DNA from: Patescibacteria group bacterium | GTDB lineage: Bacteria; Patescibacteriota; Microgenomatia; UBA12405 | Assembly: GCA_013387215.1 (NCBI GenBank) | Contig: WARW01000001.1 | Coordinates: 12,735-76,734 of the forward strand | Direction: 5' to 3' | DNA length: 64,000 nucleotides | Shown: one piece after another, positions 21,206 through 41,319 of the stretch | How the letters are laid out: every line of letters starts with the position of its first letter | Numbering within the stretch: the first letter of the stretch is position 1 | Program-made: the position numbers and the translations under genes | The notes under the pieces: generated by a model | The model's database searches: none | The model's input: only the letters and a program-made list of their open reading frames with translations | Told to the model about the DNA's origin: nothing

Positions 21206-22351
21206 TTACTCTCTAATCGCTTGGGCAATCACACTAACCACACCTCGATCCAAAGGACTTGGCAAAATAAAATCGACTGTTAGTTCATTTTCTTTAACGT
21301 AATTTGCCAAAGCCACAGCGGCCGCTAGTTTCATTTTATCCGTTATCTTTCTGACCTTGTTGTCCAAAGCACCTCGAAAAACTCCCGGGAAAGCCAAGAC
21401 ATTGTTAATTTGATTTGGATGATCGCTTCTGCCCGTGCCCACAATAAAAGCTCCCGCTGACTTTGCCATTACTGGATCAATTTCAGGAATCGGATTTGCC
21501 ATGGCAAAAATAATTGGCTTTTCCGCCATCGAATTAACCATTTCCTCAGTGGCCACATTTGGCCCGCTGACCCCAATAAAAACATTTCGATTTTTCATTG
21601 CCGTTGCCAAATCTCCGCTCAAATTTTCCTTATTAGTAAATTCCAAAAATTCTTTTTTCTCGTTATTCAAATCAGTTCTGTCTTTGCTGATTATTCCTTT
21701 TGAATCGACCACAATTAAATCTTCAAAACCATACGCACACAAAAGTTTTGTGATTGCCGTTCCGGCTGCTCCCGCTCCGCACACCACAATTTTTGTATCT
21801 TTTGGTATCTTATTTGCCAATTTACAGGCATTAATCAATGCCGCTAAAACTACAATTGCCGTCCCGTGTTGATCGTCATGCATGACAGGGATATTCAAAA
21901 TTTCTTTTAATTTATTTTCAATATAAAAACATTTTGGTGCCGAAAAATCTTCCAAATTAATTCCGCCCAACCCTGGCGCAATATTTTTGACAATATTAAT
22001 AATTTCATCTGGGTCTTGAGTGTCCAAAACAATAGGGAAGGCGTCAACATTTCCAAACTCTTTAAACAATAAAGCTTTTCCTTCCATAACAGGAAGCGCT
22101 CCGTATGGCCCGATATTCCCGAGTCCCAAAACCGCCGATCCGTCCGAAACCACCGCTACCGTGTTACTTTTAATTGAATATTCGGAAGCTAGTTCTGGGT
22201 GTTGTCCCAAAAGTGTCGACACTGCCGCCACCCCAGGGGTGTATGCCACGCTCAAATCTTCTTTTGTTTTCAGTTCTTCAAATTTGCTTGCGATTGCAAT
22301 TTTACCTTTAAATTGTTTGTGTTTTTCGAGTGAAGTTTGAGAGTAATCCAT
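21206..22351 (-). CDS. NAD(P)-dependent malic enzyme (small-form malate dehydrogenase, decarboxylating)
   Basis: AYTPGVA, VVSDGSAVLGLGNIGP, Rossmann motif VVCGAGAAG. About 380 aa small-type malic enzyme. Confidence 0.85.
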   Translation of the reverse strand: MDYSQTSLEKHKQFKGKIAIASKFEELKTKEDLSVAYTPGVAAVSTLLGQHPELASEYSIKSNTVAVVSDGSAVLGLGNIGPYGALPVMEGKALLFKEFGNVDAFPIVLDTQDPDEIINIVKNIAPGLGGINLEDFSAPKCFYIENKLKEILNIPVMHDDQHGTAIVVLAALINACKLANKIPKDTKIVVCGAGAAGTAITKLLCAYGFEDLIVVDSKGIISKDRTDLNNEKKEFLEFTNKENLSGDLATAMKNRNVFIGVSGPNVATEEMVNSMAEKPIIFAMANPIPEIDPVMAKSAGAFIVGTGRSDHPNQINNVLAFPGVFRGALDNKVRKITDKMKLAAAVALANYVKENELTVDFILPSPLDRGVVSVIAQAIRE

Positions 22352-22380
22352 AATTGATTATACCTATTATTAATATTGCT

Positions 22381-24714: not shown

Positions 24715-24854
24715 AGTAATTCAATAATAATTATTTTTCACAAAAGTATCTCATATTTAAAAATAATAAATACAAGGAAAAATACGCCAAAGTTGTTCAT
24801 TTTTTGTTCATAATTCAGTGATATACAAAATATAAATTACAAATTAAATATACT

Positions 24855-25175
24855 GTGGTTAATATAAAAAAGTTTAAATGTGATCTGTGTGATAAAGAGA
24901 TAGAAATAAATTTCCTCGGAGATATGGAAAATTTTAATAAAGACCCAAAACTTTTAGAAGAATTAATAGATAAAGGAAAACATTATCATTGGATTTATAA
25001 TCATAGAAGATGTGCAATTTGTGGAAAATTAATAGAGTCTGAAGATTTAGATTTAATCAAAAATCAGCATGGAATTCGGATAAGTGAGAATTATATAAAA
25101 GAGACATTGCCAAAAGAAAGTAATGGTGAATTGCTCATTATACATAAAAAATGCTTTAAAAATCGGTCTAAATAA
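24855..25175 (+). CDS. Small zinc-ribbon protein (two CxxC pairs)
   Basis: CDLCDKEIE...CAICGKLIE...HKKCF. Confidence 0.4.
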   Translation: MVNIKKFKCDLCDKEIEINFLGDMENFNKDPKLLEELIDKGKHYHWIYNHRRCAICGKLIESEDLDLIKNQHGIRISENYIKETLPKESNGELLIIHKKCFKNRSK

Positions 25176-25203
25176 TAAAGTTAAAAAATAACTTTAATAA
25201 GAT

Positions 25204-25539
25204 TTACATTCTTCTCCACACCACCAACGCCAATCCAATCACAAAAATAATCGAAAAAATCGTTTTATTATTTCTAGCCACAAATTTTGGCAGGAAAATA
25301 TCAAATCCATCCTCATGATTTTTCGTATATTTATAAGCCACCAAAGTCAGAGGGCAGTGCCATTTGAAAAACAGCAAAACTAAAGATTCTCCTAAAATTG
25401 TCGCAATTGAAATATAAACCAAAAGATTTTGAATATTAAAAATTCCGGCGATCAAAATATAAACAATCATTGAAGCCATCACTGCCCAAATAGAAGTGTG
25501 CAGAATTTTTATTAACAACAGCTTTGTTTTAATATTCAT
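25204..25539 (-). CDS. Small integral membrane protein (3 TM)
   Basis: Hydrophobic helices. No other motif. Confidence 0.4.
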   Translation of the reverse strand: MNIKTKLLLIKILHTSIWAVMASMIVYILIAGIFNIQNLLVYISIATILGESLVLLFFKWHCPLTLVAYKYTKNHEDGFDIFLPKFVARNNKTIFSIIFVIGLALVVWRRM

Positions 25540-25578
25540 TTTTCTGAAAAATTAAATAAATAATTTAATAATTCGATA

Positions 25579-26442
25579 TTAAATTTCGTATTCTAGGGCC
25601 AATATCTTGAAACAAGTACCATATCTGGTCCCAACTCCAAATTGTTTTTTTACCGTACTATCGCCCATTTCCACAATAGGCATTATTACACCAAACTCTT
25701 CTTGTGAATTAAAATCTTTTTGACCGTCTGAATTTTCAATGGCATATTTTATAGAAGGATTTAATATAACTTTTCTACCCTTTGGGTCAGGAACTCTTGG
25801 AGCAATAGAAATTGTCATTTCTGTTTTTAAATCTGGTGTGTCACTCAACCAATCTTGTACTTGGCTTTTATTATCTTTATTGTATAAACGAATTGTCTTT
25901 AAATCACTATCAAAAACACTTAATCGATAATATGGTTGTGGGGCTAAACCAAATTTATATGACCCATATGTTAAGGCTAATGTAGGTGGTTTTTTGTTGT
26001 CAGGTTTAATTTGTACGCGAATTTTTAAGTTTGTTAATTGGGCAGGAAATTCTTCTTTTGTCCACATACTCCAAAATTCAAAGTTTTTTACAGTCGGACA
26101 ATAAAAGCCATCATTATCCATTCTAAAATTATCAATTATCCAATTCTTTTCATTAAAACTAGCCTTTACACCTTCTAAATTTTTTGGACCAGGTGTTTCT
26201 GGCGTACCAAGCACTTGGGGATTATTTGGACAAAATTGTTGTATTATCTGAGTTTGGTTTGAAACGAAAGCAGTAAATTTTTTTTCCAAATCTTTACTAT
26301 TCCAGTAATGAGCTAATATTATTAATCCAATAATAGGTATGTAATAAACAAAAATATAAAATAAAATCGTTTTAACCCAACCATACTTTTTTATGGAATT
26401 TTGAACCTCCTCTATTTTTGGCATTTGTAAATTGTCCACCAT
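25579..26442 (-). CDS. Hypothetical membrane-anchored extracytoplasmic protein
   Basis: N-terminal TM (ILFYIFVYYIPIIGLIILAHYW), then a soluble domain. Confidence 0.4.
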   Translation of the reverse strand: MVDNLQMPKIEEVQNSIKKYGWVKTILFYIFVYYIPIIGLIILAHYWNSKDLEKKFTAFVSNQTQIIQQFCPNNPQVLGTPETPGPKNLEGVKASFNEKNWIIDNFRMDNDGFYCPTVKNFEFWSMWTKEEFPAQLTNLKIRVQIKPDNKKPPTLALTYGSYKFGLAPQPYYRLSVFDSDLKTIRLYNKDNKSQVQDWLSDTPDLKTEMTISIAPRVPDPKGRKVILNPSIKYAIENSDGQKDFNSQEEFGVIMPIVEMGDSTVKKQFGVGTRYGTCFKILALEYEI

Positions 26443-29041: not shown

Positions 29042-30853
29042 ATGTCAAGAAACATTGAGAGTCCAAGTTTCGTACAAATCAAAGAAGCTTTGGCTTGTCC
29101 GCATATTCAAAAAACCGCTCGCCCTATTGGTGTCGACTTGTTTTATTCGGATCTGGAAAGTGCTAAGGAAAGAAGACAGCTTTTGGAAAAAATGAGCCAT
29201 CTTTTTGATCAGATTCCAGACCTAAACATGGATGTCGATACCGCTTTAAAAAATAATTTAATTAGCTCTGAAAACTTATCTAATGTTTATCAGGATTTAT
29301 CTGATTTCATCAGCTCAGATTCCAATCATTCTCGTTTAGCTTTATATCTGCCTTTCCAAATTATTCCCAATTTAAATCCAGACAATTCAAAAAATATAAC
29401 CGAATCTCAGGTTAAATTTGCTAACGTCTATAAAAATGCTTGGATGCAATTGTTGTTTGAAAGTGATATTCGGGCGGATTTTTTAAACGGAGACACATTA
29501 GAACCAGGCCTAGGCGAACCAGCTCGAGTCAGAAAAGCAGCCCATTTAATACCGGAAATTTTAAAAAAGGGAATTATTGATAAAGAAGATATTGACTTAA
29601 TATTAGAAATAAATAAATCAGATGATGAATTATGCCATTCAATTAACGAAGGAGTAATTGCCTACGAGAAATTAAATAAATCAGAAAAATCTGAGGAAAC
29701 TTCAGAAATTTTTGATTTAGATAATTTAAAAAAAGAACTGGCTCTTATTGATAAAAATTACGGACCAAATTCAGAAAATATTTCCAAATTAAGTCTAAAG
29801 GAAAAATACGATTCGCCCAATCTGCTTGATTCAAAAATCAGCCAAGAAAGAGCTGCTTGGATAAGAAGAACTAAATATGGAGAAACTTTAAATAAATATG
29901 CCCAAAAAATTCATAATTTTAATACCATTGATTCTTTATTAGAAGCAGATGAACCAGTCTATAAAATACTTGGCTTAAAAGCGATTTTTAATCAAAATCA
30001 ACCGACTGATATCTTTGATAAATTAATTGAGGAACAGTGGTTGACTGGTAATAATCAAATCAAGGAAGCAATAATTACCGGCCTAAGTTATTGGCAAAAA
30101 AATAATCTAATTTCTTCACATTACCTAGATCGATTCGGAATTAAAATTCCTGATTTATCACAACCGTTTTCAGTTGATTTAGATAAATTAATTTTGTCCG
30201 ACCTTAAAAATATGACAGAGGCTGTAGAAGGAATTAAAAATGAATCAATTCTTTCTGAAAATATTTATCCAACCATATTAGTATTTGGATCAAGAGTCAA
30301 AGGATATTCTGGTCTTGATTCTGATTATGATATCGCTGTCTTTTTTAAACCAAACGCCTTAATTGATAACCGGAATTCAATTCTTCAATCAATCAAAGCG
30401 ATTCCTTCATTAAAAGAAGTAGGGAAGATATGTGAATTTTGGACAACCGAAAATGATGGAAAAATAGGTCTTAGACCAATCTCAGAAAAAGTTTGGGGCA
30501 TGATTGGACCGGAACAAATTCACTTTTTATTTGGAGGTGCTTGGATTGGTGATAAAACCGATATAAATAAAATACAGCAGGATCTTTTGGAAAAATATTG
30601 TGATTTATCAAGATTTGACCATCAAAAAGATTTGGTACGATCTCGCTTGCTGGGTAATTTAGAATACGATATTCTTCAATGCCGTCTTATGCATAAGGGG
30701 TATCGAAAATTTTATCCTGATAAAATTGATCCGAAAATTAAAAGTATAAACGCTATTGATGGAAATAGTGCCTTTTGGGATCCTGGGTTTAGACGAGTGG
30801 CAACGCAACTTTTTTTGAGTAGAGTATTTTTACCTGATTTATCGGGTAAATAA
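29042..30853 (+). CDS. Large protein with a C-terminal Pol-beta-superfamily nucleotidyltransferase domain. The N-terminal ~400 aa are unknown.
   Basis: GS-x9-DxD motif ILVFGSRVKGYSGLDSDYDIAVFF (MNT/KNTase-like). Convergent with the PurA-like operon, with a 15-nt overlap. Confidence 0.55.
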   Translation: MSRNIESPSFVQIKEALACPHIQKTARPIGVDLFYSDLESAKERRQLLEKMSHLFDQIPDLNMDVDTALKNNLISSENLSNVYQDLSDFISSDSNHSRLALYLPFQIIPNLNPDNSKNITESQVKFANVYKNAWMQLLFESDIRADFLNGDTLEPGLGEPARVRKAAHLIPEILKKGIIDKEDIDLILEINKSDDELCHSINEGVIAYEKLNKSEKSEETSEIFDLDNLKKELALIDKNYGPNSENISKLSLKEKYDSPNLLDSKISQERAAWIRRTKYGETLNKYAQKIHNFNTIDSLLEADEPVYKILGLKAIFNQNQPTDIFDKLIEEQWLTGNNQIKEAIITGLSYWQKNNLISSHYLDRFGIKIPDLSQPFSVDLDKLILSDLKNMTEAVEGIKNESILSENIYPTILVFGSRVKGYSGLDSDYDIAVFFKPNALIDNRNSILQSIKAIPSLKEVGKICEFWTTENDGKIGLRPISEKVWGMIGPEQIHFLFGGAWIGDKTDINKIQQDLLEKYCDLSRFDHQKDLVRSRLLGNLEYDILQCRLMHKGYRKFYPDKIDPKIKSINAIDGNSAFWDPGFRRVATQLFLSRVFLPDLSGK

Positions 30854-32290
30854 GTATTCGTATCCTGATCTTATTTTTCTATCTTTTGCTTTTGGTCCCC
30901 ATCCTTCAGCCACTACTGGAATTTGGATCTTTTCTTCAACATAATCCAAAAAAGTATCGACCATTGTTTTGTTATTTTCGGGTTTAAGGGTAGATAAAAT
31001 TGGCTGGCATTGATTAAGTAATTTAGTCAATTGCAGTTGGTGTTTATAATGAGCTTCGTCTTGAGTATTAGGATAAATTTTAATTCCAGTAATGATATCG
31101 TTTTCCATTTCAAAGTAGTCTTCCAAATTAGTATTTTCTCCATTAAATTTATAGCCCTCACAAATCTGCCACTCATTTTTTTGAGATAAAACATCAAGAT
31201 AACTGATCATTAGACCGTCAAAAGATTTCTTTCCGCCGCTAATTTCAACAGCATATTTCATGGCCACAATATCATAATTACCATTTCTAAATTCTCCCAG
31301 CCATTCAGTCCAATTATTGTGAGTTTCCTGAATTGAATCAGTCATTTCTCGATTAAAACTAACCAGTGGGCCGGCTCCATGGCGGGTCATATAGCATCGG
31401 CTAACACCAATTCGGACTATCTCCCCTGAATAATTTTGTTTTTGAAGAGTGCCAAGAATATCTTGAGAAGTTGGATCGATTTGAGTAGTGTGAGGAATAA
31501 AGCCGTACCATGGGTGTAAAAGTGCACCATGAGAAGTTTCGCAGACCACTAAACCTTCTTGTGACAGCATTTCATTTAAATAATTATCGTCAACAATTTT
31601 GAACAAATCGGCAGTGTATTTGAATGATTTGGCAGTTGATCCAACAAAACTTTGATCATAAAGTATTTCCAATTGTTCATATGCTTCTTCCGGCAATTGA
31701 TCTAATCCAAGAATTAGTTTTTGAGCTTGTTGAATTTTATTTTGCCGGATATTTTCTATTTTTTGGCACAAAGTTTCTTCATCATCGCTAAAATCGCCGG
31801 CTCTGATTGTTAGTTGTGGATCTTTTGAATCTTTTATGGCTTCGCCAACCCCCATACCAACTGTTCCTTTCTTGTCTTTACCTCGCATAATTTCGCGAAG
31901 TCGGCTTATAGCCCGGTGAAACGGAGTTATGGAAATACATTCTTTATCGATAGTTATTAAATCGAATGGATTTTTTACTCCCTTTTCTTCAACCTCAATA
32001 GCCTCATTAAAGAGATCAGTCGGGCAGATTACCATGTGTTTTAAGTGAGTTTTAGCGCCGTCAAAAGTACCAGCCCCAAAATGGCTAAACATTTGTTCTC
32101 GCCCATCTTCGGCTGTAATATGGTGTCCGGATTGGCAGCCTCCTGATCGCCAAACAGTATGAGCATTAAGCATTTTAGTAAAAGCTTCAACTGTGTTGCC
32201 TTTGGTTTCTTCGCCAATACCTAAACCAGTAACCACAATGACTTTATTTTTGGGCTTTTCAAAATTAATATTTGAAATTATTTCTTTCAT
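30839..32290 (-). CDS. Adenylosuccinate synthetase (PurA)-family protein, divergent paralog 1
   Basis: PurA-like P-loop GLGIGEETKGN (compare GDEGKGK), GGCQSGHH (compare GGHNAGHT), TVGMGVGEAI (compare TTGRGIGP), RHGAGPL (compare RVGAGPFP). The catalytic Asp is replaced by Glu in the P-loop. Confidence 0.65.
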   Translation of the reverse strand: MKEIISNINFEKPKNKVIVVTGLGIGEETKGNTVEAFTKMLNAHTVWRSGGCQSGHHITAEDGREQMFSHFGAGTFDGAKTHLKHMVICPTDLFNEAIEVEEKGVKNPFDLITIDKECISITPFHRAISRLREIMRGKDKKGTVGMGVGEAIKDSKDPQLTIRAGDFSDDEETLCQKIENIRQNKIQQAQKLILGLDQLPEEAYEQLEILYDQSFVGSTAKSFKYTADLFKIVDDNYLNEMLSQEGLVVCETSHGALLHPWYGFIPHTTQIDPTSQDILGTLQKQNYSGEIVRIGVSRCYMTRHGAGPLVSFNREMTDSIQETHNNWTEWLGEFRNGNYDIVAMKYAVEISGGKKSFDGLMISYLDVLSQKNEWQICEGYKFNGENTNLEDYFEMENDIITGIKIYPNTQDEAHYKHQLQLTKLLNQCQPILSTLKPENNKTMVDTFLDYVEEKIQIPVVAEGWGPKAKDRKIRSGYEYLFTR

Positions 32291-32291
32291 A

Positions 32292-32342
32292 AACCTTTCG
32301 TCCTTTTGGACTCATCAGTATCGATACGCATCGATAGAGGTT
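32292..32342 (-). ncRNA. Type III hammerhead ribozyme motif (copy A), immediately 5' of and overlapping the SD of the PurA-like gene
   Basis: The minus strand reads aaccUC | UAUCGAUgcguAUCGAUA CUGAUGA GUCC-AAAA-GGAC GAAA GGUU u AUG. The conserved CUGAUGA and GAAA cores are present. Stem I hairpin 7 bp, stem II 4 bp, stem III 4-5 bp. Cleavage site is UC. Confidence 0.6.
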
Positions 32343-32404
32343 GAATAGCTAAAAGCCAGTCTTTAAATTAATAAAGATAGCTTTCAGCTATTCTGTAAAG
32401 AGTG

Positions 32405-33556
32405 TTAGAACTTATTCCAATTGATTCCGCTTCCAGGCTGTTCATCCTTTATTGGTTGCTCTACAACAGTAGTTGCATCGTGCCCGATAGGCCAAATGTC
32501 GCGAAGATTGGCGAATTTGTCTCCAGGTTTGGGGATTTTATTATATCCGGGTAACTTCGCCTGGGCGCCAAAAAGCGGTTTTGCAACCTGCAGCCATCCC
32601 CATAGACGATTAACATCGCGTTGTGAAATATGATCATTGGAATTGCCAGCCAGCAAGAATTTGTTTAAACCGTCTTCGGTAGGTTGCAGAGTCTCTGTAA
32701 CATAAATTAGCCCTGCTTGAGCTTCGGCAAGTAGGTCAGGGTCAGGAATTGAAATAACTCTGTCTTCACCTAAATATTGCTGCCACCAGTAGATATTTGA
32801 ATTATTATGGCCAACATTAAGGTAAAACAAATGCCATTTTGATATCAGGCTTTCACAAACCTTTTTCAATGAAACCTTTTCGCTTTGCATGGTATGACCT
32901 AAATATCTTTCAACATCATGTTTGGTTACATACTCCCTGCAATCAGCATCAGCACCTAAGAAGAAATAACCTTTAAGACCGTAGTTTATAATGTCGACTT
33001 CTGTCTGATTATCGACATACCACAAACCAAGTTGATAATCTTCTGTCCAATCATCGCCATCTTTATCGGGAACCAATAACTCAACATGTTCAACGGCGCG
33101 ATTATCAGATTCAAATTCGGCCATTTGGAATGGAGGGTGGTCATCTTTTACATCCTGCAGAACGGCAACGGACAGATCTATTTGATATCTATCCTGTAAT
33201 TCTGACAGCATACAATAGACCTTCCCCATTGCCTTAAGAGCAAGTGCTACTTTTTCGCCCATTGAACCGGTTCCGTCTGTTCCTAAGATAGTCGGTAATT
33301 TAATACCTTTTGCCAATATATATATTTTTTTTCCAGCCTCATCCAACAGCACCATCGCGTTACGAGAAAGACGTTTAACACCAAAAATATTAACATTTTG
33401 ATGTAATTTGCCAGTTTTTTTGAAAACTTCATGACCTTTCTCATGAACAGTTTCGGTAAATCTCACCCCTTTCGTTGTTGCTCTTTCTTCCATTTTTCTA
33501 ACGGTTTCTACATGCTTCACTGCATTAAAAGTAGAGGTATCTTGCTTCCTTGCCAT
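32405..33556 (-). CDS. von Willebrand factor A (vWA) domain protein
   Basis: MIDAS motif ILGTDGTGSMG. Size and position are paralogous to the 38215-39762 vWA protein. Confidence 0.55.
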   Translation of the reverse strand: MARKQDTSTFNAVKHVETVRKMEERATTKGVRFTETVHEKGHEVFKKTGKLHQNVNIFGVKRLSRNAMVLLDEAGKKIYILAKGIKLPTILGTDGTGSMGEKVALALKAMGKVYCMLSELQDRYQIDLSVAVLQDVKDDHPPFQMAEFESDNRAVEHVELLVPDKDGDDWTEDYQLGLWYVDNQTEVDIINYGLKGYFFLGADADCREYVTKHDVERYLGHTMQSEKVSLKKVCESLISKWHLFYLNVGHNNSNIYWWQQYLGEDRVISIPDPDLLAEAQAGLIYVTETLQPTEDGLNKFLLAGNSNDHISQRDVNRLWGWLQVAKPLFGAQAKLPGYNKIPKPGDKFANLRDIWPIGHDATTVVEQPIKDEQPGSGINWNKF

Positions 33557-33587
33557 TTAAATCAACCCTTTCTTTTTTTAATTTTTT

Positions 33588-34553
33588 TTACCTTGGATAC
33601 GTCCGAAATTCATGAAATTGTCTTTTTAACCCTTTTCCATCCCAAGTCGGTTCTTTTGGCCAAATTTCATCAGATAGTTTGTAAAGATCATCAAACTCCT
33701 CCCCAGCAGCTTTAGCATCACCATCCATAATTCTTCGTAAGAAAGAAACATACTTATCGTAAGCATCTTTACTCATAATTTCCGAATCATAAGGCGGATT
33801 TGATTTTTCAGTGCCTCCGGCTGCTTCCCAGGCTATTTTTGCCGCTGCCACAACTTCTCGAATCTTATCGGCATAACTCGGATCTCCCTTAGTATTGGAA
33901 AAATCCAGTATAAATACTCCATGAAGTGCAGTTTCGACAAGTTCATTGTCGGCATTAACCAATCCAACCGTTAAATCAAAACTGTGGACAAAATACAGCA
34001 ACTTCAAAAGTTTTCCAAATATCCATTGGACACTTTTCAAATCAACCCTTTCCGTTGCTGTTATTACCGATAGTGGTGTTAATTGTTTATAAGAATTTAT
34101 ATTCTCGTGGTATCCCAAAAACAAAGCTGTTCTGTCTCCGGCGTCAATTTTTTCAATTAACTTCGGAAACATCGATCCGTAAAATGCTGGAGTTTCGTTT
34201 TTGCTTATCGCTTCCTGATCTAGTTCATGAGCAATTCGTTGAAGCTTTTTGAGCGTTAATGCTTCATTGTTAAGAACATTATTGCGCTCACTGCTGTTAA
34301 CGATTTTCATTAATCCGAATTGACTTGATGGTAATTTTGCTGCATAAACTCTAAATACGCTTGTTTGGGCTATTGGTAATGGATTTGGGTTATCTCCGGA
34401 TTTTAAACCGAAAATTTCATACTGGCCATTCAATCCATCGTAAAAACCCATGCTGATTAAATTAGATTCAGCTGGATTTTCACTTGGAACTAATAAGGCG
34501 ACATTTAACACTAAATCCGTTAGCCATCCTGTTGAAGAATCATTTTTTGGCAT
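33588..34553 (-). CDS. Protein-kinase-like protein (Hanks/APH-like fold) with the shared N-terminal WLTDLVL peptide
   Basis: HSFDL...N catalytic-loop-like segment and ILDFSN (DFG-like). N-terminal MPKNDSSTGWLTDLVLNVALLVPSE. Confidence 0.45.
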   Translation of the reverse strand: MPKNDSSTGWLTDLVLNVALLVPSENPAESNLISMGFYDGLNGQYEIFGLKSGDNPNPLPIAQTSVFRVYAAKLPSSQFGLMKIVNSSERNNVLNNEALTLKKLQRIAHELDQEAISKNETPAFYGSMFPKLIEKIDAGDRTALFLGYHENINSYKQLTPLSVITATERVDLKSVQWIFGKLLKLLYFVHSFDLTVGLVNADNELVETALHGVFILDFSNTKGDPSYADKIREVVAAAKIAWEAAGGTEKSNPPYDSEIMSKDAYDKYVSFLRRIMDGDAKAAGEEFDDLYKLSDEIWPKEPTWDGKGLKRQFHEFRTYPR

Positions 34554-34556
34554 TTT

Positions 34557-34754
34557 TCACACCCCTCTCATTAATTCATTCATAAAATATTTCTTAACGT
34601 TTTTTCGTTCTCTAAAGTATTCATGGATGTAGCTTCTTTCTTTAACTTTAAACTCCTTTCTCACCTGACTGATGTCTGACTCTTCAGAAACAGGTAATAA
34701 TGAAGCAAAACATAAAACTAATCCAGTCAGCCATTCCTCAGGTGTTTTTCTCAT
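34557..34754 (-). CDS. Small protein consisting of the shared N-terminal WLTGLVL peptide plus a basic tail
   Basis: MRKTPEEWLTGLVLCFASLLPVSEE matches the N-termini of the two kinase-like proteins. Confidence 0.4.
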   Translation of the reverse strand: MRKTPEEWLTGLVLCFASLLPVSEESDISQVRKEFKVKERSYIHEYFRERKNVKKYFMNELMRGV

Positions 34755-34851
34755 TCCGATTCACCCTTTCTATTACTAACACTTTATTGTTAAAGAACTT
34801 TTAATAAGATCATGACCGCTTTGACCAAGATCTTACCCAGATATCATCCCA

Positions 34852-34905
34852 AATTCCTTTCGTCCTTTTGGACTCATCAGTATCGATACACATCGACAGA
34901 GGATT
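34852..34905 (-). ncRNA. Type III hammerhead ribozyme motif (copy B)
   Basis: The minus strand reads aauccUC | UGUCGAUguguAUCGAUA CUGAUGA GUCC-AAAA-GGAC GAAA GGAAUU. 47/50 identity to copy A in the core. An a-to-g change in stem I makes a G-U wobble. Confidence 0.55.
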
Positions 34906-34975
34906 GGGGGAGTTTGTTTTTTTTATTGAGTATTGATACTCAAAACAAACTCCGCCCGGGACTATCATTTGATTT

Positions 34976-35476
34976 TTAGATTCTAATCCGTGAATCAGCA
35001 GGCCTGATGCCTTTTTGGTAAACCAATTGCATTAGTACCTTTAGTTGCGGACCAAAATCCTTTTTCAGATCTTCAGGCATAGTATTAAGAAACTGGTAGT
35101 CATCCTTGAAAAGAAAGCTAGATAAACTAGTCAATTCCGGATTTTTTTCAACCAGACTCAAATATGCCTCCCTGGTGGCGGTTGTAAACACTTCTTTGGG
35201 AGCACAGGCACGCAGGGTTAAGATGTGAACAGGTTTCATCGTATTCCAACCAGTCTTATGTTCGGAAAACATGTTGGCATCCATACGTTCTGCATTCTCA
35301 AATAACCAAGTGGCAACTTTGGAAACATCTTCCTCTTGAATTATCCTCAGATAATCCCTCAGGAAATCATTACTTGCGAAAGGAATTGCCTCCAGCGGGT
35401 CGGTCCTCCTTAGACAGTTTTTCCCATGGAATCGATGTACCGAGTTGTAACAGGGCAGCAAGATATGCATATTCAT
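34976..35476 (-). CDS. Hypothetical protein. Overlaps the upstream gene by 107 nt in a different frame, so it may be a frameshifted continuation or start at internal Met 35284.
   Basis: ORF track. Protein-like composition continues on both sides of the overlap. Confidence 0.3.
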   Translation of the reverse strand: MNMHILLPCYNSVHRFHGKNCLRRTDPLEAIPFASNDFLRDYLRIIQEEDVSKVATWLFENAERMDANMFSEHKTGWNTMKPVHILTLRACAPKEVFTTATREAYLSLVEKNPELTSLSSFLFKDDYQFLNTMPEDLKKDFGPQLKVLMQLVYQKGIRPADSRIRI

Positions 35477-36521
35477 ATTGGCCAGCTGTTACTTTCGGAT
35501 ATTCCATAATGGACAAAGCATACCTGGTGATACTACGCTCCATTCTGACATAATCAGCTGAAACATTCACATCAAGCATTTTGAGCATCTGTTCTTTGTT
35601 GGCGGCGCCAATTTGAGCTGGTAGGGCTGAATTTTCCAAAACCTCTTTGATTCTGTTGGCATCCAATGCTAAAGCCCTGGCAATCACGATACCTGTGCCG
35701 GCAAAAACCTTGTTGATCTTATCAATCACACCTTCAGCTCCATCGCGCAATGCGCTTGTATCGGGTGGCTGCTGCATCATACCTGCTGGCATTCCTGCTT
35801 GGCCTCCTGTTGCATAAATAGCAAGAGCCATCATTGCTGTAGGAGCTACTCCTTGCTGGTACGAATTAACCCATGACACAACCTGCTGGTTGTACTCGTA
35901 GAGTGCTGGCCAGAGATTCGTCCTGAGTTTATTGAGCAACGCGTCTTTCTTTCCCTGGGTTACGCTGGCACTGTCGATGTCGAGAGCCTGGAAGATTTCT
36001 GCATAATTACGTTTGGTAACCAGTTTCTGCAGCTTGTAGAAATCTTCTCCGCACGGTTCTTCCTGTTCTTCGGCAAATTTTTCCATCCGGTCCATAATGA
36101 TTTTGGGCAATTCGTAAAGACCGCTTTTGTCTGCCAATGTTGCCCTGATGGCTGCAATAATTTCAGTTATGCCGATTTTCAGCTCTCCACCTATTTTCAG
36201 CATGGCTAAAAATGAGGTATCGTCCGGAACCTGTGGCAGAACGTCCATTGACGGTTGAGCTGCTGCTGTTGCAGTTGCTTCAATTTTCGGTTTTTCCTCC
36301 TCTTTGGGTTTGAATGCTGCCGCAATTTTTTTTGCTACCACAGCACCGCATCCGGCATAAGATTTGATCTCGTCGGCTGACAATAAAACCATGTCCGCTT
36401 CAGTCATTACCCCTTCAGTTTCCAGTTTTGCAATTTGGTCTTCTTTAAGTCCGAGCTCGGTTAGCCTCAGTTTCAATGTTTCTTCCATAACAAAATCTCC
36501 CTTCATCTTTGAAATCACCAC
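35370..36521 (-). CDS. Hypothetical Ala/Gln-rich protein with N-terminal helix-hairpin-helix-like module. First gene of the second transcription unit.
   Basis: LTELGLKEDQIAKLETEGVMTEADMVLLSADEIKSYAGCGAVVAKKI (HhH-like). Local GC is noticeably higher than the surroundings. Confidence 0.4.
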   Translation of the reverse strand: MVISKMKGDFVMEETLKLRLTELGLKEDQIAKLETEGVMTEADMVLLSADEIKSYAGCGAVVAKKIAAAFKPKEEEKPKIEATATAAAQPSMDVLPQVPDDTSFLAMLKIGGELKIGITEIIAAIRATLADKSGLYELPKIIMDRMEKFAEEQEEPCGEDFYKLQKLVTKRNYAEIFQALDIDSASVTQGKKDALLNKLRTNLWPALYEYNQQVVSWVNSYQQGVAPTAMMALAIYATGGQAGMPAGMMQQPPDTSALRDGAEGVIDKINKVFAGTGIVIARALALDANRIKEVLENSALPAQIGAANKEQMLKMLDVNVSADYVRMERSITRYALSIMEYPKVTAGQYEYAYLAALLQLGTSIPWEKLSKEDRPAGGNSFRK

Positions 36522-36805
36522 TATACAGTCATATCCATATTTATGACTAATGGCTTGCTGGACACAAATTTTGTACCCAAAAAGCCACTAGTCATTTATA
36601 TTCAAATGATAGTCTTTGTAAAAATTTTTTTCTTTCACCAGCTTTTGGTGTAAATCAAAAAATCCTTACTTTGTTAAAGTGCAAATTTAGCCTATAGCTT
36701 AGCACAAGGGATTGCTGTAGTCAATCAAAAATTATTGATCATTACCGTAATATTTTTCGTAATCATAAAATATAATCATAAACTTATAATAATTAAAATT
36801 TTTAC

Positions 36806-36860
36806 CAAAAAAAACCTCAATTTAGAAATTAATTAGCATTCGCTAAAAAATTTCACCATT
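36806..36860 (-). terminator. Rho-independent terminator after PurA-like paralog 2
   Basis: The minus strand reads accucaaugg...(inner hairpin uagcgaaugcua)...auugaggu followed by UUUUUUUU. Confidence 0.45.
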
Positions 36861-36866
36861 GAGGTA

Positions 36867-38213
36867 TTAAATATCAATCGAAATCTTTTGATCTCGATCA
36901 GGGCCAACTGAAATTAAACCGATAGGAACGCCTAATTGTCCCTCGATATACTCCAGTAAGCTTCTAGTTTTAGAAGGTAAGTCTAAATAATTTTTGATAT
37001 TTGAAATATCATCTTCCCATCCTGGAAGGGTAGTGTAGACAGGCTGGCAGTTCCAAAGCAATTTCGACATTACTTCATCCTGCTTTTGCAGTTTCACTCC
37101 TACAATCTGATTATTGGGCCCGAAATCAAAGTATTTGTTTAAGGTTTCTTCGCTCTCTTTGCCGATATATCGGTAAGAATTTGCAAATTTGATTTCTTTT
37201 AAACCAGACATTTTGTCCAAGCAGGACACTACCAGTTTGTCGATTCTTTTGTTCACTTGAAGCGAATATCTAAGCAGTACAAAATCTAGCCAGCCTTGTC
37301 TGACAAATCTTTGCCAAGGAGTATAAACGTTATGAGTTTCTTCCAGATTTAAGTTTTCATCTACTGTTGGAAATGGTCCTGCCCCATGTCGGACACTGTA
37401 TGGTCTTAATAATCCTAGTATAACCGCTTCTTTTTCTCCAAGAAGTTCCAATGCATTAGCTATGGATGTCCTAGTCTGGGTGATATTTGGTTTAAAACCA
37501 TAATCGCAATCCAAAATTGTGCCCTGAGCTGCCTCAAAAATATTATTTTGAGTTTGGATTATCTTTTGTATTTCTTCATCACTTAAAATACCCACCCTTT
37601 TGGTAAGTTCCAAATAAATTTTAGCCAATCCTTTTGGTGAGTACATTTCAAACTCTTCTAAAAGTATTTTTGTTTCTTCGTTACTGGCTAGCTGTTCTAT
37701 CTGGTCAAGTTTTAACATCTTTAGTGTTTTTAGCTTGTATTCCAGATCAGGTCTCAACAGATCTTTCGCTCTAATACTAAATGCAGGATTTGTCCTTTCA
37801 TCTATAACCGTTTCTCCAACACCTCTTCCGCAAGTTCCTTTTTTGGTTGTTCTTAGTATTTCTTTTATCTTTCCGCAGATTATTTGGTAGGGGGTAATTA
37901 CTAAAGAGTTTTCTGATATCAATAATTTTTCAAATGGATCAGAAATACCCTTAGTTTCTAGTTTTTCTCCCTCTACCAAAATTCCGATTGGATCAATCAA
38001 AGTAAACTTTGAAATTATAGTTTTTAAACCAACAAAGGTTCCGGATCCGAATTGGGAAAAGGTGTGGTGGATCCCACTCGACACCACATTGTGAGCACAC
38101 TGAGATCCACCGCAATATCTGACCACATTTCCTCCATATTTTGAGGCTAAAAAATCAACCATTGATCCTTTACATTCGTCACCTTTATCTAGGCCCACAG
38201 TTATCCAATCCAT
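36867..38213 (-). CDS. Adenylosuccinate synthetase (PurA)-family protein, paralog 2 (closer to canonical)
   Basis: GLDKGDECKGSMVD (P-loop GDEGKGK), CGGSQCAHNV (GGHNAGHT), TCGRGVGETV (TTGRGIGP), VRHGAGPFPTVDE (RVGAGPFPTE). Confidence 0.7.
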   Translation of the reverse strand: MDWITVGLDKGDECKGSMVDFLASKYGGNVVRYCGGSQCAHNVVSSGIHHTFSQFGSGTFVGLKTIISKFTLIDPIGILVEGEKLETKGISDPFEKLLISENSLVITPYQIICGKIKEILRTTKKGTCGRGVGETVIDERTNPAFSIRAKDLLRPDLEYKLKTLKMLKLDQIEQLASNEETKILLEEFEMYSPKGLAKIYLELTKRVGILSDEEIQKIIQTQNNIFEAAQGTILDCDYGFKPNITQTRTSIANALELLGEKEAVILGLLRPYSVRHGAGPFPTVDENLNLEETHNVYTPWQRFVRQGWLDFVLLRYSLQVNKRIDKLVVSCLDKMSGLKEIKFANSYRYIGKESEETLNKYFDFGPNNQIVGVKLQKQDEVMSKLLWNCQPVYTTLPGWEDDISNIKNYLDLPSKTRSLLEYIEGQLGVPIGLISVGPDRDQKISIDI

Positions 38214-38214
38214 C

Positions 38215-39762
38215 TTAAAGTCTCCTTGTCTTTGACCCTGTTGTCTTGTTTACAGGTTTATTGTCGGGCATTTTCATATCGACTGTAATTTCTGGCACCA
38301 AACTATTGTCCAGTGGCCTTAAAGCAGTTTCGATGTCATTTTGCCGTTCTATGGTTTGATCTCTATCACGCATATCCTTGATGTAGTCTGACAATTCTCG
38401 GCCTCCGTATCTTGCCAAAACTCCGATAATCAAATCAACAATTCCTTTTGGATCTTTCAATCTTAAAACATGATCCTCGGGAATTACCGATGACCATTGC
38501 GCCACGATCACGTCGTCTTGGTAGTTAGCATATTTATCCTTTGTTTCCGTTATTCTTTGTTCTGGATCATAATCAAACTCCAGAATTAGTATATTACTGT
38601 TTTCCCTTGTCTTATAAGCTGGCATTACCTTTTCAAAATGCTGTATTTCACCATTGATTTCAACTTCCACAGTAAACTGTGTTTCTATACTTTCTGATTG
38701 GTGAAAAGCATAGTTTTGAACATACACTTTATAGTGTCCTTTTCTGGCTCTGCCTTTTTCCCATCTGATATTTTCCACAGGTTTTGTTGTTTCCCCGTGC
38801 ACATTCATATCTACATCCAAAAAACCTCCACACGGAGCCTTTTTGTTCTCACTTGGATAGTAAATATGAAAACCAGATGGGGTAATCACATGTAAGTCCA
38901 AGTCATTGGTGTTGTGCCAAATCAGTGAAACCCTAATATCGACTCCCTCATACAAGCCCCCGGCTCTTTCGACTCTCTTTTTGATCTCATTATCAATATC
39001 AGTTTTTCTTTTTTCCCATGTTTTTTGCGGGAAAATAAAGAATACTTCATATTTATCCTGAAGATCAGCAAAAACTTTCTTTGAGTCTAGGTCTTCGGGA
39101 ATATCATCGCCGATTATTCTTTTGACTTCATCTTTCGATACTTTGTCATAAAATCCTTCATCGCCAATGAAAAAAAGATAACCTTTTTCTCCGCGGTCAT
39201 TAGCCTCCAACGTTGAGTGATAAGCATAAAAATAACCCATCAATTCATAGGATTCTTGCCCGGTGCCGCCGCCGCCTTTTTCTGGCCACATGCATGAAAG
39301 CACTTCATCAATTTTGTCGTCATAATAAAATTTGCCGACTTGAATTGGTGCTTTGTCAAACTTAGCGTCGCCCAAACCAGCAAAACTAATCACTGGATTA
39401 AGAACGTAGCCCTTCATATTTATTTGGCCAATGAGCATTGGGACTTTTTTGTCGATTATTTCAATATCCTTTCCGCGTGAATCGGTAAAATCTGAAACCA
39501 CTACGATTGGTGTTACTTTTGCTGCTATGTTACGGATAAAATCCAAACACTGTCGAAATGCATTTTTTGGATCAAGACTAGCATGAACCACTCTTTCTTT
39601 TGTAGCATTTTTACCCACCACATCATATTGATATTCTGTATTCACACTGCTTGTTCCCACGCTTCTTTCGTAAAAAACCATATCAGATGGTCCATCGCCG
39701 TCTCCGCCTCCCATTAAAAATGGTGCCAAAAAAGCACAACGCAGTATTCTTAAAAATTTCAT
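38215..39762 (-). CDS. vWA domain protein with additional C-terminal beta-rich domain (possibly TerD-like, acidic Ca-binding-like motif)
   Basis: MIDAS-variant VVVSDFTDS and LFFIGDEGFYD (vWA beta4 hhhhTDG motif). The C-terminal segment DLDLHVITP...IYYP...GGFLDVDMN...PVENIRW resembles the TerD pattern. Uncertain. Confidence 0.5.
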   Translation of the reverse strand: MKFLRILRCAFLAPFLMGGGDGDGPSDMVFYERSVGTSSVNTEYQYDVVGKNATKERVVHASLDPKNAFRQCLDFIRNIAAKVTPIVVVSDFTDSRGKDIEIIDKKVPMLIGQINMKGYVLNPVISFAGLGDAKFDKAPIQVGKFYYDDKIDEVLSCMWPEKGGGGTGQESYELMGYFYAYHSTLEANDRGEKGYLFFIGDEGFYDKVSKDEVKRIIGDDIPEDLDSKKVFADLQDKYEVFFIFPQKTWEKRKTDIDNEIKKRVERAGGLYEGVDIRVSLIWHNTNDLDLHVITPSGFHIYYPSENKKAPCGGFLDVDMNVHGETTKPVENIRWEKGRARKGHYKVYVQNYAFHQSESIETQFTVEVEINGEIQHFEKVMPAYKTRENSNILILEFDYDPEQRITETKDKYANYQDDVIVAQWSSVIPEDHVLRLKDPKGIVDLIIGVLARYGGRELSDYIKDMRDRDQTIERQNDIETALRPLDNSLVPEITVDMKMPDNKPVNKTTGSKTRRL

Positions 39763-39785: not shown

Positions 39786-40739
39786 TTAAAATTCAAACAC
39801 TTGGAATCCGATATCTCCCCATATTTCTTTCCTCAATTCGTACAGTTTTTTTGCCATATCCCATGCATCCCTAGCCCTTTGTATTGGACTGGAGATTAAA
39901 AAGTTTTCTATAAATCTTTGGAATCGGGGGTCAACAGTATCAGGAAGACTATTATCCTCAAGATTGCCACCCAAAAGGTAAATCATACATTTACCAATGG
40001 AATACATATCTGAAGATTCTTTTGGTTCGTCTTTTTTCTGCACCTCCGGAGCGCTGTAATCATCATTTACTGCCCTAAAACCAGCCTTATTTATTGAAGC
40101 ATAACTCCAATCAATCAAACAGGCATTATGGTCATCTTTATGATTAGTCAGCAAATCCACAGGTTTTATGAGAATGTGTGCCGGTTCAATATTGCAATGA
40201 AATATTCCTTTACTATGGGCATATCCCACTGCTGCTAAAATTCGGCACAGCATCCAGGCGGCATGATAATCGGGAACTCCCGACACATACAATGGATGTT
40301 CTCTGATTTGGTTAAGGTTGAAACCCTCAAACTTCTGAAGAATTATCCCCACCGTCTTTTCTTTTGTTTTAAATCTATCCAGGAATTTTGGCAAATGAAC
40401 TTGGTTTTGGTTTTCTTCTGCAAATAATGCATTTAAGATTTTTATCTCATTATTTGCAAACTTATTGTCGATTTCTTCTTTGATTACTTTAACAATGATG
40501 TTTATGCTTTCGCTTTCATTGGCAAAATAACCCTCATAAATCATCGACAAGTCGCCCTCACCAATAACTTTGTTGACGTGGTATTCACGATTTTTAATCG
40601 TTATTACCCAGTCCAGTTTCTCAGATTCATTTGTTGCATTTGAAGCCCCTAAAACTACACCAGTCAACCAGCTTTGAGGATTTTTTTCATCCATTTTTAT
40701 CACCCTTTCTTTATTAATCAGTTTCGATTTTGATATCAA
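39786..40739 (-). CDS. Hanks-type protein-kinase-like protein, probable pseudokinase
   Basis: Gly-rich loop VIGEGDLSMIYEG, VAIK-like IIVKVIK, catalytic-loop HCNIEPAHILI (HRD Asp replaced by Asn), DFG-like IDWSYA, APE motif YSAPEV. The likely start is M at 40694, giving N-terminus MDEKNPQSWLTGVVLG. Confidence 0.55.
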   Translation of the reverse strand: MISKSKLINKERVIKMDEKNPQSWLTGVVLGASNATNESEKLDWVITIKNREYHVNKVIGEGDLSMIYEGYFANESESINIIVKVIKEEIDNKFANNEIKILNALFAEENQNQVHLPKFLDRFKTKEKTVGIILQKFEGFNLNQIREHPLYVSGVPDYHAAWMLCRILAAVGYAHSKGIFHCNIEPAHILIKPVDLLTNHKDDHNACLIDWSYASINKAGFRAVNDDYSAPEVQKKDEPKESSDMYSIGKCMIYLLGGNLEDNSLPDTVDPRFQRFIENFLISSPIQRARDAWDMAKKLYELRKEIWGDIGFQVFEF

Positions 40740-41319
40740 ACTTTTGCTTTTCTATACACAGCTTTTGAGCAATTTCCACCTGGTCGTAAAAATTCTTTTT
40801 TATTATTTTTTCATTCATCCCAAATTCTTCTACATCCCTTTTAATCCTCCTTTCCAATCTCGTTTTTGAACTCGCCGACATAAAAATATTTACTTTTTGC
40901 TCAAGATTTCCAATAGCTTCGCTGATCATTGAAGCATATAATCCTTCAACGATAATGTATTTTTGGGAAACTATCGCTTTTGTACCTACTCTCATGTTTG
41001 TTCTAATATCGTAATCAGGAAACATAACTTCTTTTTCTACTGAAAGTTTTTTGATATAACCTTTCATTTCTTCAATATGATAAGAGCTTGGCATATCAAA
41101 CGATCGATAACCGCTTATTATTGGCAAAGAATTATCGTTTTTGTTTTTAAAGCAATCATCCATTTCTACAACCACACTCTCATCATTCAAAAACTCTTTA
41201 AGTAATTTAGCTAAATATGTTTTGCCTGAACAACTGCCGCCGCTGATAAAAATAAAATAGGGGAAAACTGAAGCCTCTTTAATTTTGCTTATTAACCAAT
41301 CTACATTCAAATCAATCAC
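40714..41319 (-). CDS. P-loop nucleoside/nucleotide kinase-like protein (uridine kinase / PRK family)
   Basis: Walker A FISGGSCSGKTYLAKLL resembles the uridine kinase motif GIAGGSGSGKTT. Confidence 0.55.
   Translation of the reverse strand: MIDLNVDWLISKIKEASVFPYFIFISGGSCSGKTYLAKLLKEFLNDESVVVEMDDCFKNKNDNSLPIISGYRSFDMPSSYHIEEMKGYIKKLSVEKEVMFPDYDIRTNMRVGTKAIVSQKYIIVEGLYASMISEAIGNLEQKVNIFMSASSKTRLERRIKRDVEEFGMNEKIIKKNFYDQVEIAQKLCIEKQKFDIKIETD

Follow-up and report, generated by a model that had tools for sequence, protein, structure and literature searches.

What two adenylosuccinate synthetase (PurA)-like genes are doing in one operon of a patescibacterial chromosome is the question raised by the locus described here. 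The window analyzed, 64,000 nucleotides of contig WARW01000001.1 from a Patescibacteria group bacterium, is a piece of bacterial chromosome of low GC content (about 35%), on which enolase, iPGM, GroEL, ClpB, a split transketolase and six tRNAs are encoded. Its minus strand carries two intact open reading frames (ORFs) of the family PF00709, at 30839-32290 (483 aa) and at 36867-38213 (448 aa). The original prediction, an earlier reading of the same DNA, took them for two divergent PurA paralogs that had acquired a new function, in analogy with PurZ of Z-genome phages. We find that each of them is the last gene of a three-gene unit that also encodes a kinase-like protein and a protein with a von Willebrand factor A (vWA) fold.

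We refer to the PurA-like ligase family as PURL, to the kinase-like family as KIN and to the vWA family as X. PURL_A, or copy A, is the protein encoded at 30839-32290 (paralog 1 of the original prediction), and PURL_B, or copy B, is the one encoded at 36867-38213 (paralog 2). Labels of the form Lnnn denote related loci compared with the window, L001-L005 being metagenome contigs. The three adjacent and co-oriented genes occur twice in the window, at 40739-36867 and at 34553-30839, in the order kinase-like, vWA, PURL. The window holds two distinct triad subtypes in tandem:

39786..40739, minus strand: KIN_B, kinase-like protein of the long-vWA triad (Pfam Pkinase, E=1.2e-15; KIN hidden Markov model (HMM), 372 bits; phrog_3043)
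38215..39762, minus strand: X_B, long vWA protein (515 aa) of the long-vWA triad (vWA fold by AlphaFold2 (AF2) and Foldseek; phrog_2971)
36867..38213, minus strand: PURL_B, PurA-like ligase of the long-vWA type (PF00709, 248.6 bits; PURL HMM, 415 bits)
33588..34553, minus strand: KIN_A, highly divergent kinase-like protein of the A-type triad (KIN HMM, E=3.4e-6; phrog_3043, E=1e-6)
32405..33556, minus strand: X_A, short vWA protein (383 aa) of the A-type triad (X HMM, E=8e-20; phrog_2971, E=3e-12)
30839..32290, minus strand: PURL_A, PurA-like ligase with altered active site (PF00709, 160.8 bits; PURL HMM, 390 bits)

The triad appears to be previously undescribed and is best read as a PurA-fold ligase that has been re-tuned and has a vWA protein and a predicted pseudokinase as its fixed partners; no description of it was found in searches of an open-access full-text library, some Aravind-group papers included. 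We are highly confident of the structural part of this account, that is, of the family, its architecture and its distribution.

PURL stands apart from both canonical PurA and PurZ

Both ORFs match the PF00709 profile end to end, copy A over positions 1-411 of 416 (E=5.8e-47, 160.8 bits) and copy B over positions 2-416 of 416 (E=1.3e-73, 248.6 bits), in agreement with the two PurA-type genes that had been predicted. Their scores against the curated PurA models lie far below the cut-offs. NCBIfam NF002223 (cut-off 402 bits) and TIGR00184 (395.55) yield 125 and 108 bits for copy A and 217 and 197 bits for copy B, and both copies stay under the cut-off of all five NCBIfam PurA equivalogs. E. coli PurA (1ADE) matches copy B with 148 bits only. 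Identity of the window copies amounts to 23-31% with canonical PurA and to 19-20% with PurZ.

The same separation is seen in a neighbor-joining (NJ) distance tree of 54 sequences with 200 bootstraps. Besides the PURL proteins, the tree contains seven canonical PurAs (E. coli, Legionella, Arthrobacter, Staphylococcus, Parabacteroides, Haladaptatus and Eubacterium), the PurZ of phage phiVC8 and a PurZ-like protein of Ralstonia. PURL is split from all other sequences in 200/200 bootstraps, and both window copies branch outside canonical PurA. Judged by sequence, neither copy is a canonical purA for purine biosynthesis. An HMM search found no further PF00709-like ORF in the window, and there is no purB among the Pfam matches of the operon and of the rest of the window.

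The analogy with PurZ proved to be generic only. PurZ of Vibrio phage phiVC8 (gp27), an N6-succino-2-amino-2'-deoxyadenylate synthase of Z-genome phages, is like PURL a re-tuned PurA-fold ligase, and both are found in phages. PurZ, however, has ~343 residues, lacks the (K/x)xD guanine motif and carries a GSTGKG P-loop with Ser13, whereas PURL has GDECKG or GEETKG and copy B retains Asp13. The phiVC8 gene adjoins genes for a dATP triphosphohydrolase and a DNA polymerase, neither of which is present at the window triads. As had been noted before, the Z-genome genes DatZ, MazZ and DpoZ are absent from the Pfam matches of the operon and of the rest of the window. A PurZ-type Z-base pathway was rejected on the grounds of the 19-20% identity, the different P-loop and the lack of Z-genome genes in the window.

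The PurZ-like protein of Ralstonia is encoded on a Ralstonia solanacearum megaplasmid (L105:5425-7140). This protein of 571 aa is labeled 'adenylosuccinate synthetase'; its P-loop, GSEGKG, is PurZ-like, and it falls into neither the PurA nor the PURL branch. An AAA ATPase gene lies directly upstream, and another one, encoded on the opposite strand, is located ~2 kb beyond it. A 2025 survey reported an AdSS domain adjoining DarT-like ADP-ribosyltransferases (PMC12522546), and the Ralstonia protein probably belongs to this AdSS family, which is distinct from PURL.

Conserved and altered residues of PURL

Sequence positions offer a greater level of detail about what has changed in PURL. Residues are numbered as in E. 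coli PurA, and family positions are those of 119 copy B homologs from the database, aligned with MAFFT. Kept in these homologs are GDxGKG, His41, Gln224, Thr239, Asp333 and Ser414. Other positions depart from PurA throughout the family: Asn38 is always replaced by Gln, Val273 always by His and Thr129 almost always by Cys, Arg143 is not conserved, and Lys331 is exchanged for Asn, His or Cys. The aspartate loop, GATTGRRRR in PurA, takes the form xN.WQ..[FV]R with an invariant Trp-Gln, and its residues Thr300, Thr301 and Arg305 are replaced family-wide. This loop is the largest deviation from PurA in the window copies, reading TPWQRFVR in copy B and TEWLGEFR in copy A. The ligands of the IMP 5'-phosphate are altered as well, with Gln38 and Cys/Val129 and without the conserved Arg143.

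Copy B holds Asp13, Lys16, His41 and Gln224 and carries the PURL signature of Gln38, Cys129, His273 and Trp-Gln. Copy A keeps Lys16, His41 and Asp333 and has Glu13 and His224 in place of Asp13 and Gln224; in addition, Arg131 is changed to Met, Trp-Gln to Trp-Leu, and Ser414 is lost. The two copies share 29% identity over 472 columns (E=3e-54), a modest value as anticipated. Their P-loops, GEETKGN in copy A and GDECKGS in copy B, and the exchange of Asp13 for Glu in copy A had been read correctly. The conserved Lys that copy A was said to lose is, however, still in place: the equivalent of Lys16 is kept in both copies, and only the non-catalytic Lys18 is replaced. Three further PurA signatures had been ascribed to both proteins, and each holds for one of them. 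GGxxxGH is present in copy A (GGCQSGH) but not in copy B (GGSQCAH), TxGRGxG in copy B (GTCGRGVG) but not in copy A (GTVGMGVG), and RxGAGPFPT in copy B but not in copy A (RHGAGPLVS). The idea of a neofunctionalized PurA holds, given the alignment with its altered Asp loop and IMP-phosphate ligands, the scores below the PurA cut-offs and the separate clade.

These data also bear on the simplest alternative, in which one or both copies are a working, fast-evolving housekeeping adenylosuccinate synthetase with neighbors that are unrelated or merely regulatory. PURL resembles PurA (EC 6.3.4.4; 1ADE/1GIM) in its full-length fold, its P-loop, His41 and the guanine-specificity residue Asp333, and copy B also shares Asp13, Lys16 and Gln224. 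Annotations on contigs of up to 1.1 Mb from Daviesbacteria, Shapirobacteria and Woesebacteria moreover label A-type proteins 'adenylosuccinate synthetase', and the window has no PF00709-like ORF besides copies A and B. A housekeeping role nevertheless appears highly improbable to us, in view of the equivalog scores, the family-wide replacement of Asp-loop and IMP 5'-phosphate ligands and the clade separated in every bootstrap. The genomic setting argues in the same direction: PURL is co-encoded with a vWA protein and not with purine genes, the vWA gene always adjoins it, also in phages, in Rhodococcus and Variovorax plasmids and in large genomes, and the window lacks purB. Nannocystis, Leptospiraceae and a large planctomycete would be expected to have a normal purA.

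Two old subtypes in tandem

PURL_B groups in the NJ tree with the PURLs of long-vWA loci, and its nearest relative from a genome is the Shapirobacteria locus L025. PURL_A and the A copies of L001, L004 and L005 form a clade with 100% bootstrap support, which is placed among the short-vWA PURLs. A database search with copy A returned 245 homologs at E<=1e-10, and those with names are all Patescibacteria (Daviesbacteria, Shapirobacteria, Woesebacteria). Independent A-type loci are present in L108, a complete 1.08-Mb Woesebacteria genome, and in L109. Both combine KIN_A-like, X_A-like and PURL_A genes with a convergent nucleotidyltransferase of ~620 aa, and in L108 an NrtR regulator is located directly upstream of the triad. 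A recent tandem duplication of purA was considered and rejected, since the copies fall in different old subfamilies and each has its own KIN and vWA partners. For the same reason, the two genes are not local paralogs, as had been supposed.

The altered active site of copy A might indicate that PURL_A is a catalytically dead nucleotide-binding paralog, acting as a sensor or scaffold, and that PURL_B is the sole enzyme. The change of the catalytic base Asp13 to Glu, of Gln224 to His and of Arg131 to Met, together with the loss of Ser414, would agree with such a role, as would the partner KIN_A, the most degenerate KIN member. Lys16, His41 and Asp333 remain, however, and Glu can act as a general base. 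Glu13, His224 and Trp-Leu are common to 91 of the ~120 best copy A homologs, down to 42% identity, which speaks for selection on an alternative site and against decay. A dead copy A thus seems unlikely to us. We favor PURL_A as a specialized version of the ligase, which may have another substrate or a regulatory role.

The vWA partner

X_A and X_B are homologous (BLASTP, E=5e-12). X_B has no Pfam match and no relative in the PDB. An AF2 model of X_B built from the alignment reached a predicted local distance difference test (pLDDT) score of 78.9, compared to 34 for the single-sequence model, and matched integrin beta-I/vWA domains in Foldseek (E=3.8e-9, probability 1.0). In the model, the vWA domain is accompanied by an inserted beta-sandwich (~residues 254-400) and a C-terminal helical domain. 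The metal-ion-dependent adhesion site (MIDAS; DxTxS...T...D) is intact, with D91-x-T93-x-S95 and D201 invariant and the loop GGGG[TS]GQES providing the Thr/Ser. X_A, with orthologs in L001, L004, L005, L108 and L109, has the MIDAS residues (DGTGS) and lacks the beta-sandwich insert. The long vWA (~490 aa) is about 50% identical across phyla.

The ends of the vWA proteins are conserved as well. The first 16 codons of the X_B ORF are found in no homolog; hence, the conserved and probably true start is Met17 (MGGGDGDG), at ~39714. A Met-Gly N-terminus is present in 110/120 long forms and in most short forms, and is absent from the A-type. The N-terminal ~50 residues are predicted to be disordered, and the C-terminus is almost always Arg-Leu/Ile.

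The nitrogen donor in PurA chemistry is the alpha-amine of an amino acid. It is conceivable that PURL is a protein-nucleotide ligase, in which the alpha-amine of the N-terminal Gly of the vWA protein, freed by Met removal, would take the place of aspartate and yield an N6 link to the protein, and in which the pseudokinase, J-domain or AAA+ protein would present or remodel the product. Replacement of the Asp side-chain pocket by an invariant Trp-Gln, the Met-Gly start on a disordered N-terminus and the obligate co-encoding of ligase and vWA protein are all consistent with such conjugation. So is the A-type, where the vWA protein lacks Met-Gly and the ligase lacks the Gln and is changed at residues 13 and 224. 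This evidence is correlative, however, the co-variation represents a single clade-level event, and a Met-Gly start may serve other ends. We know of no precedent for N6-linked nucleotide-protein conjugates from a PurA-fold enzyme, which counts further against this route, and we judge it to be rather unlikely.

The vWA protein and its insert also occur apart from the triad. In six loci from Nannocystis spp. (L039, L041, L042, L044, L048, L049), a long vWA gene is present with neither a kinase-like nor a PURL gene within 10 kb. Representatives of a reverse-transcriptase cluster and of a SWIM-domain cluster (six loci each) are found in these vWA-only loci, which suggests that the vWA protein was recruited to another system. 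A viral-contig scan with a single vWA sequence gave no match, whereas the scan with the vWA alignment recovered four IMG/VR contigs (L093-L096), matching the beta-sandwich insert only. This insert (JGI label YfaP/DUF2135-like) stands alone in viral contigs and in phrog_1735 and phrog_23228.

The kinase-like partner

The catalytic loop of KIN_B reads HCNIEPAH, without the catalytic Asp, and DWS occupies the DFG position. Throughout the family, HRD is replaced by HGN (60/64 members) and DFG by DW[CS]. The HGN form corresponds to the Asp-to-Asn state of HER3, and hence a pseudokinase or an atypical enzyme is predicted. KIN_A has no Pfam match and no recognizable catalytic loop. Its direct phmmer matches are the kinase-like genes of L090 and gp251 of phage Cali, and a second HMM round retrieved 81 KIN proteins. 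Most KIN members possess a J-domain-like N-terminus with an HPD-type motif, which matches DnaJ in L013 (27.5 bits, E=3.4e-6) and, at the same place but more weakly, in three further members. This N-terminus is missing from KIN_B and its closest relatives. In L006 and L092, the position of the kinase-like gene is occupied by one for a classical AAA+ ATPase. Three copies of the motif WLT[GD][LV]VL are present, one at the N-terminus of KIN_A, one at that of KIN_B and one in the 65-aa ORF that directly precedes KIN_A; a regular-expression search of ~100 related loci found no further copy.

Two known types of system invite comparison. In AAA+/vWA activase or chaperone pairs of the MoxR-vWA type, such as CbbQ-CbbO, NorQ-NorD and the Mg-chelatase pair ChlI-ChlD, a AAA+ protein works with a vWA protein. 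Similarly, the triad encodes a MIDAS-bearing vWA protein beside its presumed client enzyme, and L006 and L092 contribute a AAA+ ATPase. The partner in the window is a predicted pseudokinase, however, the AAA+ proteins of L006 and L092 are of the FtsH/Cdc48 and not the MoxR type, and the client role is inferred. The TerY-P triad, reportedly described by Anantharaman, Iyer and Aravind in 2012, is said to combine the vWA protein TerY with a Ser/Thr kinase and a PP2C phosphatase. It shares with our triad the pairing of a vWA protein with a kinase-fold protein, and a PP2C/SpoIIE gene stands beside the triad in L008 only. In contrast to TerY-P, the kinase-like protein of the window lacks the catalytic Asp, the window has no PP2C, and the third member is a PurA-like ligase.

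Distribution in bacteria, plasmids and phages

A scan of one genome per species with the vWA protein yielded 157 relatives, and the per-locus counts given here and below refer to the best 80 of these 157, with a reach of 8 kb. The 80 loci come from Acidobacteria, Myxococcota (including cultured Nannocystis), Leptospiraceae, Clostridia, Patescibacteria, Gammaproteobacteria, Ca. Uabimicrobium and others, and large genomes are represented by Nannocystis, Leptospiraceae and a 9.5-Mb planctomycete. Within reach of the vWA gene, a kinase-like gene is present in 66/80 loci, normally directly upstream, and PURL in 55/80; many of the loci missing KIN or PURL are truncated contigs. Conversely, all loci reached from PURL alone (L006, L090, L091, L092, L108, L109) have an adjoining vWA gene. 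L008, a 4.7-Mb genome reached from the vWA protein, displays a plain kinase-like/vWA/PURL trio. A profile search of 1.84 billion cluster representatives gave 919 matches at E<=1e-30 and 5117 at E<=1e-10, part of which rest on the beta-sandwich alone.

The triad is also carried by megaplasmids of Rhodococcus opacus and Variovorax and by phages. In Mycobacterium phage Cali, gp251 matches KIN (205 bits), gp252 the short vWA (224 bits) and gp254 PURL (378 bits), and 202 Mycobacterium phage records, from Bxz1-type phages, match the triad families. The Cali genes gp251-gp254 thus hold the three families in the same order as the window, and gp254 has Gln38, Cys129 and Trp-Gln. The differences are that Cali carries the short-vWA subtype and that gp252 is annotated as 'kinase' although it is a vWA protein. 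Of its neighbors, gp251 is annotated as 'kinase' too, and gp254, which follows gp253, as 'PurA-like adenylosuccinate synthetase'. PHROGs keeps the three families separately as phrog_3043, phrog_2971 and phrog_1211.

This distribution has consequences for annotation. Hundreds of Patescibacteria, Chloroflexota, Acidobacteria and Myxococcota genomes carry 'adenylosuccinate synthetase' labels for which a role in purine biosynthesis is probably wrong, and the 'PurA-like' label in ~200 mycobacteriophages likewise probably does not denote a purine-biosynthesis enzyme. Metabolic reconstructions of reduced genomes are affected, for instance in the claim that the step from IMP to AMP is present. The triad itself is a tightly conserved and widely transferred three-gene unit, whose vWA member has no Pfam family or solved structure. 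Bxz1/Cali phages and M. smegmatis provide a tractable model for it.

Genomic neighbors and a proposed function

The genes around the triads hint at the metabolism in which PURL takes part. One or more NAD-salvage or ADP-ribose genes are found in 20/80 loci, which belong to Acidobacteria, Clostridia, Gammaproteobacteria and Patescibacteria. According to Pfam, they encode NadE or a NadE-NMNAT fusion, NMNAT-like proteins, PncA-like isochorismatase, NAPRTase (PncB), NrtR, Nudix proteins and ADP-ribosylglycohydrolase (ARH), and NrtR adjoins the Rhodococcus triad. A pyruvate-kinase-barrel-like protein of ~310 aa (PF00224) is encoded beside the triad in 25/80 loci, mostly between vWA and PURL where mapped; read directly, its KIES and AARDDL motifs resemble the active site of pyruvate kinase. 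LOG/SLOG and nucleoside 2-deoxyribosyltransferase-like genes also occur among the neighbors, and L091 has a phosphoribosyl pyrophosphate (PRPP) synthetase as well. A multi-zinc-ribbon protein of ~800 aa accompanies the triad in 18/80 loci (Myxococcota, e.g. L063:6016-8436), often with PURL upstream on the opposite strand.

We propose that PURL is a GTP-dependent C-N ligase that would join a 6-oxopurine nucleotide to an amine other than free aspartate, with the vWA protein and the pseudokinase as regulator, activase or client and with a tie to NAD/ADP-ribose, and we give this proposal an even chance of being correct. Because Asp13, Lys16, His41, Gln224 and Asp333 are kept in the B-type, B-type PURL would bind GTP and Mg2+ and phosphorylate the 6-oxo group of a purine nucleotide. 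The replacement of the Asp loop by an invariant Trp-Gln suggests that the amine joined to this nucleotide is not free L-aspartate. The changes at Asn38, Thr129 and Arg143 make it probable that the nucleotide differs from IMP at its 5' end, and it could be a dinucleotide or another 5'-substituted form. By analogy with the AAA+/vWA activases, the vWA protein and the J-domain-like pseudokinase (the AAA+ ATPase in sister subtypes) would regulate the ligase, work as its activase or be its client. The pathway may feed into, or respond to, NAD/ADP-ribose nucleotide metabolism.

Several points weigh against this proposal. The substrate assignments rest only on residues mapped onto E. coli PurA by alignment, and the tree behind the family split is an NJ distance tree rather than a likelihood tree, with only 41% support for the canonical PurA clade. 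Glu13 and His224 of PURL_A may reflect lost catalysis and not a new specificity, and a kinase domain without the catalytic Asp is no proof of inactivity. The link to NAD is seen in about a quarter of the loci and could in part be lineage synteny. The window itself contains neither NAD genes nor a pyruvate-kinase-barrel partner, only a uridine-kinase-like gene.

The presence of the cassette in about 200 Bxz1-type mycobacteriophages and in megaplasmids could also be explained by a conflict system, directed against phages in cells and serving counter-defense in phages, which would sense or repair depletion or modification of NAD and adenine nucleotides. The block moves between unrelated flanks, and in the window it belongs to an accessory stretch that also has an AAA_13 ATPase and a segment of low GC. 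The NAD-salvage, Nudix, ARH, LOG/SLOG and nucleoside 2-deoxyribosyltransferase-like neighbors are typical of nucleotide-centered conflict systems, and a different PurA-like family stands beside DarT-like ADP-ribosyltransferases (PMC12522546). On the other hand, nothing in the core is an obvious effector (nuclease, pore or NADase, for example), and the long vWA, at ~50% identity across phyla, is unusually conservative for an immune gene. PADLOC models miss PURL, the vWA protein and the accessory proteins: a scan of the ten operon proteins against PADLOC-DB v2 gave generic kinase matches of KIN_B only (MkoA, mad6, PD-T4-6). A role in conflict is compatible with the ligase proposal, and we entertain it as a minority possibility.

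PurZ exemplifies how a re-tuned PurA is able to create a new DNA base. A second re-tuned PurA branch with fixed partners and a recurring NAD/ADP-ribose link is a testable lead to new nucleotide chemistry. More speculatively, and with considerable doubt, we hypothesize that the PurA-fold ligase makes an N6-substituted purine nucleotide, which could be a new metabolite or signal of NAD/ADP-ribose metabolism or a nucleotide tag attached covalently to the N-terminal Gly of the vWA partner. Under control of the pseudokinase/J-domain protein or the AAA+ ATPase, bacteria and large phages might use it to manipulate adenine-nucleotide and NAD pools during infection.

Further genes of the operon and its surroundings

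The triads of the window are embedded in two blocks. The B-type block (41319 to 34976) consists of a nucleoside-kinase-like gene, KIN_B, the long vWA, PURL_B and two conserved genes of unknown function, and the A-type block (34553 to 29042) of KIN_A, the short vWA, PURL_A and a convergent nucleotidyltransferase. The genes outside the triads, including one doubtful ORF, are:

40714..41319, minus strand: PRK/uridine-kinase-like P-loop nucleoside kinase, first gene of the block (Pfam PF00485, E=3.5e-13)
35370..36521, minus strand: 383-aa conserved protein, fold not recognized, recurrent accessory of long-vWA triads (homologs beside triads)
34976..35476, minus strand: small conserved protein, 166-aa ORF (orthologs of 99-155 aa)
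34557..34754, minus strand: 65-aa ORF of doubtful status with the motif WLTGLVL
29042..30853, plus strand: 603-aa Pol-beta-type nucleotidyltransferase (Pfam Polbeta, E=3.7e-7)

The full ten-gene arrangement is kept in L001-L004, and L005 carries most of it before the contig ends. The proteins are 39-69% identical to those of L001-L005, whose flanks are not the same. The operon is of an accessory kind and moves as one block among varying flanks, which agrees with its earlier description as an accessory-looking operon that is not next to purB. Rfam and tRNA scans of the window detected tRNAs alone, none of them inside the operon, and a promoter and terminator scan of the operon did not exceed shuffled expectation.

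The nucleoside-kinase-like protein scores 80 bits against the NCBIfam uridine kinase model, under its cut-off of 180, and its family is found upstream of the kinase-like gene in 8/80 related loci as well as in L001 and L004. For the protein at 35370..36521, searches of Pfam, PHROGs, PADLOC and PDB profiles gave no match. It is 47-69% identical to triad-side genes in L001, L004, L086 and L091 and 32% identical to one in L030, with more divergent homologs in L005 and L025. In pairwise BLAST against L086 and L091, it is more conserved (52-55%) than the adjoining PURL (34-39%). The small protein at 34976..35476 has no family match in Pfam or PHROGs. Its orthologs occupy the same position in L001-L005 and lie near the triad in L025, and its true start is probably further downstream.

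The nucleotidyltransferase gene is convergent with PURL_A and overlaps its 3' end by 15 bp. It is a fixed partner of the A-type triad, with convergent orthologs in L001-L004, L108 and L109. Its PDB-profile match is confined to an MNT-type core (HI0073, E=0.0024); beyond this, PDB profile searches with the nucleotidyltransferase, the vWA protein and the 35370..36521 protein returned nothing informative.

Two regions of the window outside the blocks show signs of insertion. A 777-aa AAA_13 ATPase (433 bits) is encoded at 22381-24714 on the minus strand, adjoining a stretch of 27-29% GC (22000-26000). This region, a few kb beyond the 29042 end of the block, looks like a separate accessory or defense-type insertion. 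At the other site, a DnaG-like primase (2255-3169) and a large serine recombinase (3403-5319) are encoded beside tRNA-Ser and tRNA-Arg (5143-5229 and 5844-5918). The recombinase ORF as listed overlaps the opposite-strand tRNA-Ser, and the region is probably an integrated mobile element.

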